From an uncultured delta proteobacterium (GTDB lineage Bacteria; Desulfobacterota; Desulfobacteria; Desulfobacterales; Desulfosalsimonadaceae): DNA of 64,000 bases. Location of the stretch: assembly GCA_963826785.1 (NCBI GenBank), contig CAWGYD010000008.1:449971-513970 (forward strand), read 5' to 3'. Shown piece after piece: positions 3,259 to 9,970 of the stretch. The first letter of the stretch is position 1; every line of letters starts with the position of its first letter. Position numbers and translations under genes: made by a program. The notes under the pieces were generated by a model. That model did not search any database. It was not told the DNA's origin and saw nothing but the letters and a program-made list of their open reading frames with translations.

Positions 3259-3718
3259 GTCACAATTTAAAGCAGATGGGCCAAAGCGGTCTTTTGGGAC
3301 CGCAGCAGCAAAATTCAGTATTATTCAGTGATGATCCAAAAATGAACAGCATGCCGATGCCTGTCAATTTTACGTGACCTTCAAAGATTATACAAGCCGC
3401 TTAAATTAGAAGTCGTTTTTTCTCCGATGGACGCTGTGCGTTTCGCATTCACATGGTCTTGCCGGATGCGCTTGAGCGCGCTGCCGCCCGGTTGTATTTA
3501 AAGCGATCCCGATTCAAAACACAAACCATCAAAGTCCTTTTCTACTTTCTGCAATATAGGGTCTATACCTTATTTACATACGACCGCATGGTTATGTAAA
3601 GTTTTAATGATCTCAGATAAATAGTGCATGAACGAATCACGCCCCGGCGATGATCCGCATCTTCGTTCAAGCGCTGACTATAAGAATTTCACCACCTTTT
3701 TGCACGGGTAAAAAAAAG

Positions 3719-5218
3719 ATGACGCACACTGGAGCAGAGAAGGCGCCAAAACCGCGGTTGATGGTGGTATCCAACCGCCTGCCCATCATCCTGGATCAGA
3801 ACGAACAGGGCGAGTGGCAGGCCCGGCCGGGTTCGGGGGGATTGGTGACGGCGCTGGCCCCCGTTCTCAAAAATCGGGGCGGATTATGGATCGGCTGGCC
3901 GGGCGTTACGCAATTTCCGGAAAATGAACTGGAAAAGGCCATGGCCGAAGCGGCCATTGCATCCGGATTCAATCTCAAGCCGGTGGAACTGACTGAACTG
4001 GAAAGAGAAAAATACTACCGGGGAGCTGCCAATGAGATGATCTGGCCGCTGTTTCATGACATGCCCGGCCGGTGTAATTTCGATCCTTCGTACTGGCCTT
4101 TCTATGAGCAGGTCAATCGCAAATTCGCCGAAAAAATTGTCGAAAACATCGAAAAGGGTGATTTTATATGGGTGCATGATTATCACCTCATGGACGTGGG
4201 AAATGAATTGAGAAGTCTGGGGGTAAAGGATAAAACCGCTTTTTTCCTGCATATCCCATTCCCACCCCCCGATATTTTCATGCGGCTGCCCTGGCGGTTC
4301 GATCTGCTGCGCGCCCTTCTGGCCTACGACCTGATCGGCCTTCAGACCCTGCGCGATCAGCGCAACTTCATCCAGTGCGTCCGAAAAAACATCAAAACCG
4401 TTTCAGTTCATGGCCGGGGCCATGTGCTGACGCTCGATTTCGGTGAGCGCCAGGTCCGGGTGGGGGCATTTCCCATCAGCATCGACTACCATGATTTCGC
4501 TTCGACCGCCGACAGCAAGGAGGTGGCGAACAAGGCGTGGTACATACACGAGCAGATGCCGGGGGTGAACATCATCCTGGGCATCGACCGGCTCGATTAC
4601 TCAAAGGGGATCCTGGAGCGGATAAAGGCATTCCAGTATGCGCTTTCCCGCTATCCCGAACTGCTGGAAAAGGTCATCCTGGTCCAGGTGGTGGTCCCCA
4701 GCCGGCGCAACATTCCCGAATACGAAGATCTTAAAATCGAAATCGAGCGGCTGGTGGGCGAAGTCAACGGAGAATTCACCCGGTTTGACTGGGTGCCTAT
4801 CCATTATATTTTCCGCAGCCTCACCCGGACCGAACTGCTGGCCTACTACCGGACCTCGGAAATCGCCCTGATTACGCCCTTAAAGGATGGCATGAACCTG
4901 ATCGCAAAAGAGTTCTGCGCCTCCAGCATCGAGGAGAACTGTGTTTTAATCCTGAGCGAATTTGCCGGCGCGGCCGCCCAACTCCAGAAGAACGCCCTGA
5001 TGGTCAACCCCCACGATCAGCAGGGGGTGGCCGAGGCCATCTACCGGGCCTTTAAAATGGCTCCGGAAGAACGCAGGGAGCGGATGCGGCAGTTGCGCAA
5101 AAATATCGAGAAGACCGATATTTACTGGTGGGTCAATTCCTTCCTGCAGGCCTCCATTGCCAAAACCCTGAACAATTTCTCCCGTCCGGAAGATTACCGG
5201 CCCCAGTTCGAATTGTAG
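3719..5218 (+). CDS. otsA: Trehalose-6-phosphate synthase (GT20)
   Basis: [57 protein letters not shown]; start uncertain (3650-3719). Confidence 0.92.
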
Positions 5219-5401: not shown

Positions 5402-6331
5402 ATGGAGAAAGCCGTCCTGAACCGGGCCCTGCCCCGCCGGCTGAAGCTGTTTCTGGCCCTGTCCCGCACCCCTCACGGGATTCTGGATATGGCCACGCCC
5501 GCCTTTGCCGTACTGCTCTATCTGGGCGCCTTTCCGCAGCCCCAAGTGATAATGATCGGCCTGATGACCGCATTTGCCGGGTACACCGCGGTGTATGCCT
5601 TAAACGATGTGGTGGATTACCGCTCCGACCGGGAGAAGTCGGGCCATGAAATGGCGATTCCGGAAAATTACCTGGATGCCGTCGGCGTGCGGCATCCCAT
5701 GGCACAGGGCCTGCTGAGTATCCGCGACGGCATCATCTGGGCGGCCGGCTGGTCCGTTGTGGCGCTGATCGGGGCCTGGCTGCTCAATCCCATGTGCGTG
5801 GCGGTATTTTTGACCGGTGCAGCGCTGGAGGTGATTTACTGCGTTTTGTGGCGGGTCAGTCCCTGGCGGGCGGTGGTGAGCGGAATGGTCAAAAACAGCG
5901 GGGCGATTGCCGCCCTTTTTGCCGTGGACCCCACGCCCTCGGTTTCCTTTACGCTGGCTTTATTCCTGTGCCTGTTCTTCTGGGAGATCGGGGGACAGAA
6001 TATCCCGGCGGACTGGACGGACCTGAAAATGGATCGCTTCTATAAAGCCCAGACGATCCCGGTGCGGCTGGGCGCCCGGACATCTGCCCGGCTTGCCCTT
6101 GCCTCTCTCAGCCTTGCGGTGATTTTCGCCATTGTCCTGTTCGCCCGGGCCTTTCCGAATGTGCGTTGGACTGTTTCCGCCGCAGTGTTTCTGATGGGCA
6201 CGGCCCTTTTGATCGCACCCGCTTTCCGGCTGGTCCGGGCCGGGTCACGGGATGCGGCCATGGCCCTGTTCAATAAAGCCAGTTACTTCCCCCCCGCCCT
6301 GCTGGCAATTTCCATGATTGCGATTTTGTAA
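5402..6331 (+). CDS. UbiA-family prenyltransferase (divergent)
   Basis: Multi-TM; NDVVDYRSD and DWTDLKMD...TIPVRLG Asp-rich motifs; RHPMAQG loop. Confidence 0.85.
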   Translation: MEKAVLNRALPRRLKLFLALSRTPHGILDMATPAFAVLLYLGAFPQPQVIMIGLMTAFAGYTAVYALNDVVDYRSDREKSGHEMAIPENYLDAVGVRHPMAQGLLSIRDGIIWAAGWSVVALIGAWLLNPMCVAVFLTGAALEVIYCVLWRVSPWRAVVSGMVKNSGAIAALFAVDPTPSVSFTLALFLCLFFWEIGGQNIPADWTDLKMDRFYKAQTIPVRLGARTSARLALASLSLAVIFAIVLFARAFPNVRWTVSAAVFLMGTALLIAPAFRLVRAGSRDAAMALFNKASYFPPALLAISMIAIL

Positions 6332-6382
6332 GTATTTCTCGCCAGACTTTGCGGTCCTGGAAAAAATAATCAATCAAAAGAA

Positions 6383-7195
6383 TTACTTGGTGGCCACATG
6401 CACCGCGGCGATGCCGTTCATCAGGCGTTTGTAATGGACATTTCTGAACCCGATGGTTTCGAGCATCTCTTTTAACTCGTCGGGAAGCGCAAACATGCGG
6501 ATGGTTTCGGAAAGGCAGGCATACGATCGGCTGGATCCGGTGAGGATTCCGCCGACAAAGGGCATGATGGTAAACGAGTAGAAATCGTACAGGGTCCGGA
6601 ATACCGGGTTGACCGGTTTTGAAAATTCCAGGCACATGAAGGTGCCGCCGGGCTTGAGCACTCTGAACATTTCCGAAAACCCCTTCTGCAGGTGGGTGAG
6701 ATTGCGGATGCCGAATCCCACCGTGGCCGCATCAAAATGGTTTTCCGGAAATGTGATGTTCTCCGCATCCCCCTCCACATAACTGATCCGGTCTTCAAAT
6801 TTTCTGTTCTCCGGCCGGGTCTCCCCGGCGTGCATCATGGCCCGGTTGATGTCATAGACGCAAACCCATCCTTTAGGCCCCACTTTTCGGGCGGACAGCA
6901 CCGCAAGATCGCCGGTCCCGCCGCACACGTCGATCACCCTGTCCCCGGGTGAAAGCGCCATCATCCGGATGGCCTCCCGCTTCCAGGCATAATGGATGCC
7001 GAAGCTCAGCACCGTATTTAAAAAATCGTATTTCGGCGCCACCTTGTTGAAATGGTCCAGGACCGCGCGTCTCTTTTCTTCGGTCCGAAATTCCTTCAGG
7101 CCGAACCATGCTTTTCCGGCCTGGTCCACATAGTGGTCAAACATCTTTTCCCGCTGGTCTTCTTTCAGCCAGCCCGGATTTTTCCATAATTCCAT
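6383..7195 (-). CDS. ubiE: UbiE/MenG quinone C-methyltransferase
   Basis: FNKVAPKYDFLNTVLSFGIH, DVCGGTGD, GFGIRN, LKPGG..CLEFS, YACLSETIRMF. Confidence 0.9.
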   Translation of the reverse strand: MELWKNPGWLKEDQREKMFDHYVDQAGKAWFGLKEFRTEEKRRAVLDHFNKVAPKYDFLNTVLSFGIHYAWKREAIRMMALSPGDRVIDVCGGTGDLAVLSARKVGPKGWVCVYDINRAMMHAGETRPENRKFEDRISYVEGDAENITFPENHFDAATVGFGIRNLTHLQKGFSEMFRVLKPGGTFMCLEFSKPVNPVFRTLYDFYSFTIMPFVGGILTGSSRSYACLSETIRMFALPDELKEMLETIGFRNVHYKRLMNGIAAVHVATK

Positions 7196-7211
7196 TTTTC
7201 AGCTTTTTTCC

Positions 7212-7922
7212 CTATGTTGGTTTACTCAAATGCATCAGGTAATTGACTTTTTGAATCCGCGTGAACCCGGTGCGGCGGATAAACGGCAAATAGTAAAACC
7301 CCCTGACATCCCTTACCGCCAAGCCGGCGGCTTTTGCCATTTCCGCCACCTTTGCCGGTCGGATGAATTTGGAATACGCGTGCGTTCCTTTTTCCACGAT
7401 GCCCAGGACCCGCTCTGCCATCACGATCGCCAGCAGCCAGGCGGCAAAGGTCCGGTTGAGGGTGGCGATGAAGACCTGCCCGCCGGGCCTGACCAGAAGC
7501 GCGCAGGCATGAAGAATCGATGCCGGGTCCGGAATATGCTCCAGCAGTTCCATGCAGGTAACGGCGTCAAAGGACTCCGGTGATTTCTCGGCCAGATCTT
7601 CTGCGGAAATCCGGCGATAATCAACCGCCACGCCGCTGATCCCCATATGCGTCCGGGCGGCCGACAAAGCCGATTCCGCAAGATCGATCCCGGTCACCTC
7701 CGCCCCGGCAGCGGCCATGGCTTCGGCCAGGATGCCGCCGCCGCAGCCCACATCCAGGATCTGTTTGTTCCGGATATCAAGCCGGTTCTGGATATAGGCC
7801 AGCCGCAGCGGATTGATGTCGTGCAGGGCCGCAAGCGGACCCTTTCGGTCCCACCAGAGAGAAGCCTGGCTTTCAAACCGGGCCACCTCATCGGGATCCA
7901 TATTGTATTGAGCCGAAGGCAT
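7212..7922 (-). CDS. ubiG: UbiG-type O-methyltransferase
   Basis: NMDPDEVARF..WWDRKGPLAALHDINPLRLAYI, LDVGCGGGILAEAMA, CMELLEHIPDP, ATLNRT, GTHAYSKFIRP. Confidence 0.88.
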   Translation of the reverse strand: MPSAQYNMDPDEVARFESQASLWWDRKGPLAALHDINPLRLAYIQNRLDIRNKQILDVGCGGGILAEAMAAAGAEVTGIDLAESALSAARTHMGISGVAVDYRRISAEDLAEKSPESFDAVTCMELLEHIPDPASILHACALLVRPGGQVFIATLNRTFAAWLLAIVMAERVLGIVEKGTHAYSKFIRPAKVAEMAKAAGLAVRDVRGFYYLPFIRRTGFTRIQKVNYLMHLSKPT

Positions 7923-8768
7923 CTATGCCACCGGCAACCCGGTTTCTTTAAACACCGGGGAAAGAAATTCCACGGATTTTTTTCCGGCAATCTCGGGGCC
8001 GTGCGCATAGGTATAAAGCTCAAGCGACATATCCCCGTCATAGCCCAGACGCTTCATGGCGGAAAAAACCGCCCCAAAATCGATGGCCCCATCTCCCGGC
8101 ACCAGGTGATGGTGGATGCGGCTTTGGCCGATATCTTCCACATGGACGTGGCCCACCCACTCGAAGAGGTCTTCGAATGCCGCTTCGGGGCGCTCCCCGG
8201 CGCAGAAAAAATGGCCGATATCGAAGTTGATCCCCACTGCGGGGGACCGCACATCTTTGATGAACGAGATAAATTCGGCACTCCTCTCGATGAGCAGGTC
8301 CGGTTCCGGTTCCACCAGCAGTTTCACCTTCAGCTCTTCCGCCAGGGGGATCACTTCTTCGAGTCCCTTGTGGAAAAGCGCCATGGCTTCATCCCTGGAC
8401 TGCCCGTCCAGGGGACCGCCCGGCGGCACGGAGATATTTTTGCACCCCAGGGTACGGGCGATCTGAAGACATTGCCTGGTATGAGAGACCCGTATTTGCC
8501 GGCGCTGCGGATCGGATTCGATCCATGACGGCAGGTAGGTGTTCCCCACGGCAAACAAGGTGAATGAATTTAAATTGGTGACGCATAGATCCAGTTTCTT
8601 CAGCAGGTCTCTGAGCCGCTCCAGTTGGGCGGCATCGTATTCCGGTGGGTAGAGATGGGGCTGATCGCACATGATCTCCACCCCGGAAAAACCAAGATCG
8701 GCAATTTTCTCCAATGCTTCGACAAGACCACATTGGGTAAAGGCATTGGTGCTGTAACCCAGTTTCAC
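7923..8768 (-). CDS. Xylose-isomerase-like TIM barrel (sugar phosphate isomerase/epimerase; IolE/IolI superfamily)
   Basis: GFSGVEI, LVEPEP, NFDIGH, HVHVED, HLVPGDGAIDF, GYDGDMSLE metal-binding motifs. Confidence 0.85.
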   Translation of the reverse strand: MKLGYSTNAFTQCGLVEALEKIADLGFSGVEIMCDQPHLYPPEYDAAQLERLRDLLKKLDLCVTNLNSFTLFAVGNTYLPSWIESDPQRRQIRVSHTRQCLQIARTLGCKNISVPPGGPLDGQSRDEAMALFHKGLEEVIPLAEELKVKLLVEPEPDLLIERSAEFISFIKDVRSPAVGINFDIGHFFCAGERPEAAFEDLFEWVGHVHVEDIGQSRIHHHLVPGDGAIDFGAVFSAMKRLGYDGDMSLELYTYAHGPEIAGKKSVEFLSPVFKETGLPVA

Positions 8769-8803
8769 GGTTTTTCGATTTCCTTTCCTTTAATAGTGCT
8801 GCT

Positions 8804-9970
8804 CTAATTATGCATGACAGTCGTACGGCGGCAGACATCGGCAAGTTGCTCCAGGCTTTTCAACTGGTCCTGAAAGGTCCTGGGCGGATCCTCACCGATG
8901 GATTTCTTGAAAAAAAAGGCGAGTTCGCCGATGGGTCCGGATCGTCCGGACAGGGAGAGGGCCGCCATCCATCGCGCCAGGTCCAGCACCATGGGAGCGG
9001 CCAGGATGGAGTCCCGGCCCTGCAGGTTGAGCCGAATGCTCATGGGCATGGAGAAAATGCTTTCAAAGTCGATCACGTCCCAGGCTTCCTTGGCATCTCC
9101 CCGGGGCGGATAGTAATCGATGTGGACCTTGTGCGACGGCTTGCCGAACTTTTTTTCGCCCGGCCGATAGCCCAGCACATGATCGAGCACATCGGTCTTG
9201 TTGGTCAGCTTGCAGGCCGCATGCGCCGGATCCATCAGATTTTCGCCGTCGGCATTTCCCAGGATGTTCAAGCTGTACCAGCCGTTTACATAGAGCTTGC
9301 GGGCCGCAAACGCGGAGGCCATCACGACCTTCCAGTAGGTCTGGCCGGTTTTGCCGTCCCGCCCCGCCATGGGCACCCCTTGGCGCACGGCCTCGTTGAT
9401 CACCGCGGGCACCTCGATTTCATTAGGGGTAAAATTGATCACCGGGATTTTTGACTCGATGGCGGCAAGCGCATAGACCAGATCCGGAAAATCGATCCCC
9501 TCGCTCATCCCGCAGAGCGCTTCAACTGAAGTATAGCCGTTTAAATTATGCATCTGGCAGGCGGGAAGCAGATTGACCAGCACCGGGACCATGTCGGGAT
9601 ACATTTTTTTGAAATCAGCCATATCTTCGACGACTTGCCTGATCTGTGCCTTCAGCCCGGCCCGGGGGTCGGGTGCCGGCCTGACCGGATATGTTGCGAA
9701 TGCTTCGGCATAGGGGGCAAAGGTGCTTTCTTCGAGCACCCCGTGGCCGATGAGCGCATCCGTCATGGAACCGGTGCGTATGTCCCAGCCGGCCGCTTGA
9801 AAACGACGGTTGACGGGCAGATCCATGTCCGCTGTCATCAAATACGGCCACACCTGCTCGGGCCGCTCTCTTGCGGCCTCGATTGCCGCCGCCGCCGTGG
9901 TGGCGATCGCCCCCTTCATGCCTGAAACCAGTATCAGCACGCCTTTTTCTGAATTGCCGCTGTCTGCCAT
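8804..9970 (-). CDS. ino1: Inositol-3-phosphate synthase family protein
   Basis: GRDGKTGQT, WYSLNILGNADG, YYPPRGDAKEAWD, RDSILAAPMVLDL, FFFK catalytic-core motifs. Confidence 0.88.
   Translation of the reverse strand: MADSGNSEKGVLILVSGMKGAIATTAAAAIEAARERPEQVWPYLMTADMDLPVNRRFQAAGWDIRTGSMTDALIGHGVLEESTFAPYAEAFATYPVRPAPDPRAGLKAQIRQVVEDMADFKKMYPDMVPVLVNLLPACQMHNLNGYTSVEALCGMSEGIDFPDLVYALAAIESKIPVINFTPNEIEVPAVINEAVRQGVPMAGRDGKTGQTYWKVVMASAFAARKLYVNGWYSLNILGNADGENLMDPAHAACKLTNKTDVLDHVLGYRPGEKKFGKPSHKVHIDYYPPRGDAKEAWDVIDFESIFSMPMSIRLNLQGRDSILAAPMVLDLARWMAALSLSGRSGPIGELAFFFKKSIGEDPPRTFQDQLKSLEQLADVCRRTTVMHN

Follow-up and report, generated by a model that had tools for sequence, protein, structure and literature searches.

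To our knowledge, the rings of the known bacterial respiratory quinones all derive from chorismate. The high-potential quinones have been counted as three (PMC11874023), and a survey published in 2026 that covered 26,264 genomes reports support for ubiquinone outside Pseudomonadota only in the class GWC2-55-46 (PMC13386864). Here we analysed a five-gene set in a 64,000-nucleotide stretch (the window) of contig CAWGYD010000008.1 from an uncultured bacterium of the order Desulfobacterales (assembly GCA_963826785.1). The set is composed of a myo-inositol-phosphate synthase (MIPS)-like cyclase, a TIM barrel, the O-methyltransferase UbiG, a UbiE-like C-methyltransferase and a UbiA-superfamily prenyltransferase. 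The asterisk in Ino1*, TIM*, UbiA* and UbiE* marks proteins of the cluster type.

The set resembles the ubiquinone pathway, which has O2-dependent and O2-independent (UbiUVT) forms, in its true UbiG, its UbiE-like C-methyltransferase and its UbiA-superfamily prenyltransferase, which are joined by a UbiB-like kinase in many relatives. However, the source genome (4.43 Mb, 88% complete) gave no match for UbiC, UbiD, UbiJ/T, UbiV, UbiH or UbiI, UbiA* lies outside the UbiA clade, and a sugar-phosphate cyclase and a TIM barrel take the place of the genes for ring supply and hydroxylation. With the ebo clusters and the thallusin system, the set shares a cyclase that can be of either EboD or Ino1 type, a TIM barrel related to theirs, a UbiA-family protein with Tyr at an Arg site, and the cyclitol-to-aromatic logic proposed in a preprint (bioRxiv 10.64898/2026.05.21.724671). 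It differs from them in lacking EboB, EboC, EboE and EboF, in having one TIM barrel versus two in the ino1-type (Ino1-Ino2-Ino3) clusters, and in its UbiG, UbiE and link to respiratory oxidases. Methyl-plastoquinone of Nitrospirota is likewise a benzoquinone outside Pseudomonadota that tracks O2 use, and MpqE is the best model for UbiE*, whereas methyl-plastoquinone is described as made from 4-hydroxybenzoate via MpqC/D/X with no O-methyl group (PMC11874023) and UbiE* scores below the MpqE cut-off. The TIM-barrel fold of TIM* and the dehydration of keto-cyclitols are found in IolG/IolE catabolism and AsbF, but TIM* is only ~18-20% identical, far under the IolE cut-off, and lies inside a biosynthetic cluster. 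AsbF, a 3-dehydroshikimate dehydratase, aromatises its substrate. In its logic the set is a benzoquinone pathway preceded by ebo-like steps, but it cannot be placed in the ubiquinone, ebo, futalosine or Men pathways.

The five genes constitute a real, conserved and previously undescribed system, present in many relatives of sulfate reducers. We found no description of it in the literature, where the supplements of PMC13386864 and of the thallusin preprint could still mention these genomes. Judged from gene families and neighbourhoods, the cluster would be, with moderate confidence, a hydroxylase-free, cyclitol-derived pathway to a methoxy-methyl-polyprenyl-1,4-benzoquinone serving O2-reducing chains. 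An earlier note on this DNA had proposed a sugar-derived quinone pathway. Its gene content is confirmed and its interpretation is partly supported: those of its refuting conditions that could be checked by sequence did not overturn it, but the set is tied to O2 reduction, a four-oxygen ring is not implied, TIM* is neither IolE nor EboE, and UbiA* is not EboC.

Conservation of the set

The tight packing described previously was confirmed by re-measurement, with gaps of 35, 0 and 16 bp among the four co-oriented genes and 51 bp to UbiA* (Table 1). In agreement with the same note, none of the 44 window proteins scanned (shorter and overlapping open reading frames excluded) is encoded by a ubiC/D, flavin hydroxylase, ubiU/V or mqn gene. 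Of 157 confirmed Ino1* loci, the 80 best were used to count neighbourhoods, and these 80 all belong to Desulfobacterales or Deltaproteobacteria. TIM* directly follows Ino1* in 79 of the 80, and the flanks contain UbiE in 19, UbiG in 7 and UbiA* in 5. The order and orientation of the window recur at loci L016, L018 (UbiA 2.4 kb away), L026 and L038, so the arrangement is not due to chance.

Because the pathway genes are often scattered, their presence was profiled across 131 genomes of the order, identified as Desulfobacterales from relatives that bear names (main sample), beside a phylum sample of 301 genomes. Profile cut-offs were E<1e-70 for Ino1* and E<1e-50 for TIM*. Left out of the counts were 13 canonical-MIPS matches with E of 1e-42 to 1e-49 (Ino1*), one TIM barrel of G041 at 4e-30 (TIM*), three AroB-like matches near 1e-42 (EboD-like cyclase) and generic ABC1 kinases near 1e-80 to 1e-92 (UbiB-like kinase). 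Among the 131 genomes, Ino1* has 40 carriers, TIM* 49, UbiA* 60, UbiG 54 and UbiE* 64; all five genes are present in 32 genomes and none in 65. Ino1* and TIM* occur together in 39 genomes, and TIM* is accompanied by UbiA* in 47 of its 49. Of the UbiA* carriers, 53 have UbiG and 59 have UbiE. The paralog of the UbiB-like kinase is found in 33 genomes, all UbiA*-positive.

Loci with a name include metagenome-assembled genomes of Desulfosarcina, Desulfatitalea and Desulfosalsimonas. At the phylum level, UbiA* is present in 35 of the 301 genomes, 31 of them outside the order, including one distant 33% match. Several loci outside the order show Ino1*, TIM*, UbiE* and a small methyltransferase with a convergent UbiA*, an arrangement that matches the window except that a different methyltransferase stands where UbiG would be. 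The neighbourhood, whose conservation had been put forward as a check, is conserved. A small class I S-adenosylmethionine methyltransferase follows ubiE* near the UbiG slot at L237 (8345-8980), L244, L246, L247, L318 and L320; it coexists with UbiG in G025, G027, G088, G090 and G003.

Properties of the five proteins and source of the ring

Ino1* forms its own long-branch clade (SH-aLRT, a branch support, of 100), and its best PDB match is 7nwr. The residues that align with the MIPS catalytic positions (D205, K207, D241, K254, K258, K294 and D320) are invariant, as is K355 in a 25-row alignment. The LASTE/CASTE (STE) loop of MIPS, which we take to be an NAD contact, is replaced by LLPA. Three Ino1* genomes among the 131 also have a canonical MIPS.

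Among proteins from named organisms, the closest to Ino1* (36%) and TIM* (41%) are encoded in ebo-type clusters on plasmids of Bacillus, Haloferax and Streptomyces. The TIM* sequences group in a single clade (SH-aLRT 97), whose sister is a TIM barrel from ino1-type ebo clusters of Bacillus, Haloferax and genome G331. Its predicted model (pLDDT 92.5) has a fold resembling ketose epimerases, IolI, AsbF and IolE, and the columns E153, D183, H186, H209 and E250 are invariant. By model score TIM* is neither IolE (TIGR04379, 48 versus a cut-off of 290) nor EboE (33.8 versus 250). We propose that TIM* is a keto-cyclitol dehydratase/aromatase.

UbiA* matches PF01040 with 85 bits, falls below every NCBIfam cut-off and is predicted to adopt the UbiA-superfamily fold; for both TIM* and UbiA* the predicted folds agree with the family calls. 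In the tree, UbiA* forms a clade (98/97, including one distant row) separate from E. coli UbiA, MqnP, EboC, MenA and CyoE. Both Asp motifs are kept, and an invariant Tyr61 occupies the site of an Arg in UbiA and MqnP, a Tyr that UbiA* has in common with EboC. In ApUbiA, the Arg at that site is described as lying by the carboxyl of 4-hydroxybenzoate (PMC11047366). The replacement of this carboxylate Arg by Tyr, together with the absence of any UbiD-family match in 25 of the 60 UbiA* genomes, fits a non-carboxylated acceptor. In the PDB, UbiA* is matched best by digeranylgeranylglyceryl phosphate (DGGGP) synthase, which is O-prenylating, and by chlorophyll synthase; phmmer of UbiA* against the PDB and tblastn against plasmids gave no match.

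Several assignments of UbiA* were rejected. It is not a 4-hydroxybenzoate polyprenyltransferase (TIGR01474, 36 versus 275; separate clade; Arg replaced by Tyr61), not MqnP (24-26 on MqnP models with cut-offs of 420-430), and not EboC, with which it does not group. In 30 of 59 UbiA* loci (for example, L138:9085-9792), a gene for a fusion of cytochrome b5 and DUF2231 is found no more than 1.5 kb from UbiA*, and the source genome has a 26% match only. At L253 (G152:C68), a distant UbiA* relative adjoins an FAD reductase, a cytochrome b and a molybdopterin subunit, possibly another quinone-linked variant.

UbiG passes TIGR01983 (252.8 versus a cut-off of 103) and is 47% identical to E. coli UbiG and 56% to a Halomonas UbiG; its tree is quick and unrooted, and no donor is claimed. 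UbiE* passes TIGR01934 (247.8 versus 158) and NF001244 (235 versus 216), and MpqE/UbiE models outscore MenG models, the best single one being MpqE with 271, under its cut-off of 335. UbiE* shares 41% identity with E. coli UbiE and 34% with the second UbiE/MenG of the source genome. Enzymes of the UbiE family add C-methyl groups to quinol rings, and the hydroxyls of such rings are methylated by UbiG.

The cyclase of the set can be exchanged. An EboD-like cyclase of the dehydroquinate synthase family (PRK06203 model, 512-552 versus a cut-off of 333) is present in 7 of the 131 genomes, all of them UbiA*-positive and none with Ino1*. Its gene directly follows TIM* in G002, G033, G042 and G099, and in G095 it is paired with EboE instead of TIM*. 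In G022, in which neither cyclase was found, TIM* is located between iolE/iolD and iolG with an iolB-like gene in the region (L329, G022:C29). Three sources of cyclitols or inososes beside TIM* suggest a keto-cyclitol substrate, and the proposed cyclitol origin of the ring gains support from the exchange for an EboD-like cyclase and from the iol genes around TIM* in G022. The same EboD/Ino1 interchange is reported in the thallusin preprint, which proposes a cyclitol-derived aromatic ring and describes EboC as prenylating a trihydroxy-quinaldate (trihydroxy-quinoline) (bioRxiv 10.64898/2026.05.21.724671). Operons of ino1-TIM-TIM without eboB/C/F were seen at L312, L313, L314 and L317 (G203, G292, G392 and G333), the first three of these genomes having b5-UbiA*-methyltransferase genes elsewhere, and complete ino1-type ebo-like clusters of Desulfobacterota at L316 (G331) and L326 (G324).

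According to a review, the EboD product is a deoxy-inosose, leading to a three-oxygen ring. By formula arithmetic, deoxy-inosose (C6H10O5) minus two water, or inositol phosphate minus phosphate and two water, equals trihydroxybenzene, and tetrahydroxybenzene is obtained only from inosose or inosose phosphate. The quinone expected of EboD-type genomes is therefore demethoxy-ubiquinone-like, and the tetra-oxygenated ring of true ubiquinone, as put forward previously, is not implied. Chemical routes are described from myo-inositol to 1,2,4-trihydroxybenzene and from inosose to 1,2,3,5-tetrahydroxybenzene (PMC11467972), so that even the isomer of a four-oxygen ring is not fixed. In addition, docking has led to hydroxyhydroquinone being proposed as a COQ2 substrate (PMC13638691), which lends weak support.

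Link to oxygen respiration and other quinone genes

The source genome encodes alternative complex III (ACIII), a cbb3 oxidase, a bo3 oxidase and two bd-type oxidases and is thus equipped to reduce O2. The carrier had been proposed for an anaerobe; the set is instead tied to O2 reduction and not to strictly anaerobic life. The cbb3 gene ccoN is present in 55 of the 131 genomes, of which all 55 have a pathway gene and 53 have UbiA*; UbiA* occurs without ccoN in 7 genomes, and neither is found in 69. A pathway gene lies within 25 kb of ccoN in at least 32 of the 55, a lower bound because contigs are short and UbiE and UbiG positions were entered in part. In G033 and G001, the oxidase, ACIII and pathway genes form continuous islands with the UbiB-like kinase beside UbiA*. 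The island of G033 reads cydAB-TIM*-EboD-like-ubiG-ubiA*-ubiB-like-ccoI-cbb3-ACIII-ubiE*. Moreover, pathway genes directly adjoin ACIII-cbb3 operons in G316, G387 and G388. Within families f1, f7 and f27, single genomes (G113, G006 and G089) are without both the whole set and ccoN. The O2-reducing gene set of the source genome is rich for a sulfate-reducer relative. Many genes of the ACIII-cbb3-Ino1*-TIM* island at L271 (G001:C1) are split, probably by assembly errors.

Table 1 Coordinates of the five-gene set, its window neighbours and other genes of the source genome (C, contig of the source genome; positions without a contig refer to the window).
Feature	Position	Strand	Description
UbiA*	5402-6331	+	Membrane prenyltransferase, 309 aa, PF01040
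UbiE*	6383-7195	-	UbiE/MpqE-like ring C-methyltransferase, 270 aa, TIGR01934
UbiG	7212-7922	-	O-methyltransferase, 236 aa, TIGR01983
TIM*	7923-8768	-	Xylose-isomerase-like / AP-endonuclease-2 TIM barrel, 281 aa, PF01261
Ino1*	8804-9970	-	Divergent NAD-dependent myo-inositol-phosphate-synthase-like cyclase, 388 aa, PF01658/PF07994
ACIII + cbb3	C3:356693-370559		O2-reduction genes
bo3 operon	C6:208407-213209		O2-reduction genes, with heme O synthase
cydA	C6:646514-648927		Cytochrome bd
cydA	C1:483723-485045		Cytochrome bd
menA-like gene	C1:351047-351908		L155; split over two frames
Second UbiE/MenG-type gene	C6:956912		
OtsA	3650-5218		Trehalose-6-phosphate synthase
Lipid kinase + metallophosphoesterase	1453-3258		Gene pair
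GrpE/Hsp70/Lcl-domain	36484-41330		Gene run

Other quinone genes were sought in the source genome, which showed no match to the MqnA/D (PF02621), UbiD or UbiC families and no tblastn match to E. coli UbiT, UbiV, UbiH, UbiI, UbiJ, UbiC, MenC, MenD or MenH. The ring hydroxylases UbiH/I/V/T were thus not found by tblastn (the Coq7 type was not searched). Two U32 proteins are 29-31% identical to UbiU, and the one of 411 aa scores higher as TrhP. Among five near-complete relatives, the UbiV query, run without a positive control, matched none, and the UbiC family was found in 0 of 5 genomes. The source genome has no MenD over the cut-off, and its MenB-like gene (334 versus 342.7) lies among beta-oxidation genes. 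Since no head-group pathway was found, the menA-like gene and the second MenG-type gene may salvage 1,4-dihydroxy-2-naphthoate (DHNA). Queries for TatD (eboB), EboC, EboE and EboF gave no tblastn match at E 1e-5.

MqnA/D is present in 70 of the 131 genomes and in 25 of the 60 UbiA* genomes, and the five-gene set is therefore independent of the futalosine pathway. All five futalosine-positive UbiA* genomes examined have a second, stronger PF01040 gene, and in the three that were scanned this gene exceeds the TIGR01475 cut-off, with high scores on MqnP models. UbiA* and UbiE* are accordingly not the MqnP and MenG of the genome, as the source genome has the menA-like and second MenG-type genes, and a distinct gene of MqnP type is present in futalosine-positive relatives. 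G061, G022 and G086 carry 14 to 21 UbiD-family genes each, suggesting specialised aromatic (de)carboxylation.

Proposed pathway and rival explanations

In the proposed pathway, Ino1* would cyclise glucose 6-phosphate to an inositol or inosose phosphate, as its family suggests, and EboD-like relatives would supply deoxy-inosose instead. TIM*, presumably with a metal, would then remove water and possibly phosphate, giving tri- or tetra-hydroxybenzene; aromatisation of a cyclitol in this way would require no ring hydroxylase, chorismate lyase or decarboxylase. UbiA* would prenylate the non-carboxylated arene, which UbiG and UbiE*, going by their families, would O-methylate and C-methylate, respectively. 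When cells meet O2, the product would pass electrons at a higher potential to ACIII/cbb3, bd or bo3 oxidases, beside any menaquinone. Within this reading, a three-oxygen ring, giving a demethoxy-ubiquinone-like product, is slightly favoured over a four-oxygen ring, which would give ubiquinone. Speculatively, Ino1* may release an oxidised intermediate and so permit ubiquinone itself; it keeps the residues aligned with the catalytic positions but has the LLPA loop, and its cluster is without the second TIM barrel found in the ino1-type ebo systems.

Several observations weigh against this pathway. ACIII is usually a menaquinol oxidase, so the oxidase link shows respiration and not high potential. 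Among 30 of the 61 places in a text-mined table, the Desulfobacterota rows list menaquinones only, and the one Desulfobacterales row among them lists MK-8(H4) only. Related genomes are not independent, and co-occurrence therefore overstates the link. The cluster has no phosphatase or dehydrogenase gene, the source genome lacks the UbiB-like paralog, and the iol context of TIM* comes from a single genome. Outside the order, four TIM* genomes gave no UbiA* match, one of them with a full ebo cluster. In addition, 11 of the 60 UbiA* genomes (92-100% complete) have neither a cyclase nor TIM*, and, outside the order, 14 of the 30 genomes with a close UbiA* gave no TIM match (E<=1e-40), which shows that this front end is not needed for the tailoring genes to be present.

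These 11 genomes, in 5 of which the PF01261 matches include no TIM*-like protein, would suit UbiA*, UbiG and UbiE* making a respiratory benzoquinone from a scavenged or elsewhere-made arene (for example, hydroxyquinol or methoxy-hydroquinone), with Ino1* and TIM* serving a different, co-regulated product. The b5-DUF2231 fusion beside UbiA* could be an alternative ring-supplying or oxidising step. We regard such arene salvage as unlikely, because TIM* occurs almost only alongside UbiA*, several families, both of this order and beyond it, have the cyclase and TIM* in one co-oriented run with ubiE*/ubiG or a different methyltransferase gene, and the link is kept when Ino1* is swapped for the EboD-like cyclase; moreover, some genomes could salvage the arene while others make it de novo. 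Less probable again is an ebo- or thallusin-type prenylated, cyclitol-derived polyphenol acting as a membrane antioxidant or signal and not as an electron carrier. The ebo-type clusters around the nearest named TIM* and Ino1* relatives and the Tyr common to UbiA* and EboC fit that product, and an antioxidant would likewise track O2 exposure. However, the source genome has no eboB, eboC, eboE or eboF match, UbiA* does not group with EboC, and a true UbiG with UbiE-like and UbiB-like proteins and ACIII-cbb3 adjacency fits a respiratory quinone.

That the ring is never aromatised and a prenylated, methylated inositol membrane lipid results is improbable. The MIPS catalytic positions kept in Ino1* and the DGGGP synthase and chlorophyll synthase matches of UbiA* are in line with such a lipid, whereas the UbiE and UbiG families act on quinol rings and ring hydroxyls, a deoxy-inosose made by an EboD-type cyclase would hardly be expected as a lipid head, a canonical MIPS is also kept in 3 Ino1* genomes, and the oxidase link would be left unexplained. 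The least probable explanation, and a very remote one, is a mixed neighbourhood in which UbiA* and UbiE* are a divergent MqnP/MenA and MenG for menaquinone. The menaquinone route of the source genome is indeed unclear, as MqnA/D, MenC, MenD and MenH gave no match and the menA-like gene is split. But UbiA* lies outside the MqnP and MenA clades, UbiG has no menaquinone role, and the 25 UbiA* genomes with MqnA/D include the five that have a second, stronger PF01040 gene.

A cyclitol-derived benzoquinone pathway could well be, although we stop short of calling it probable, the first high-potential benzoquinone route with a non-shikimate ring, aromatised without O2 or hydroxylases, its quinone being dedicated to ACIII-cbb3/bd in nearly half of the sampled Desulfobacterales. 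If so, it would be a hydroxylase-free way to coenzyme-Q-type molecules that escapes surveys such as PMC13386864, would suggest that abundant sediment sulfate reducers own a dedicated O2-respiring chain, and would bear on the origin of high-potential quinones. With so few genes, the set is also a convenient model for working out how ebo clusters turn a cyclitol into an aromatic ring.

Elsewhere in the window no tRNA was found, and the promoter and terminator scans were at chance level (2 versus 3.2 and 8 versus 7.5). Of the three window neighbours in Table 1, OtsA was checked and did not recur beside pathway genes in the loci of relatives. The ESM Atlas returned only UbiA clusters and isomerase clusters, Thermodesulfobacteriota being the commonest.

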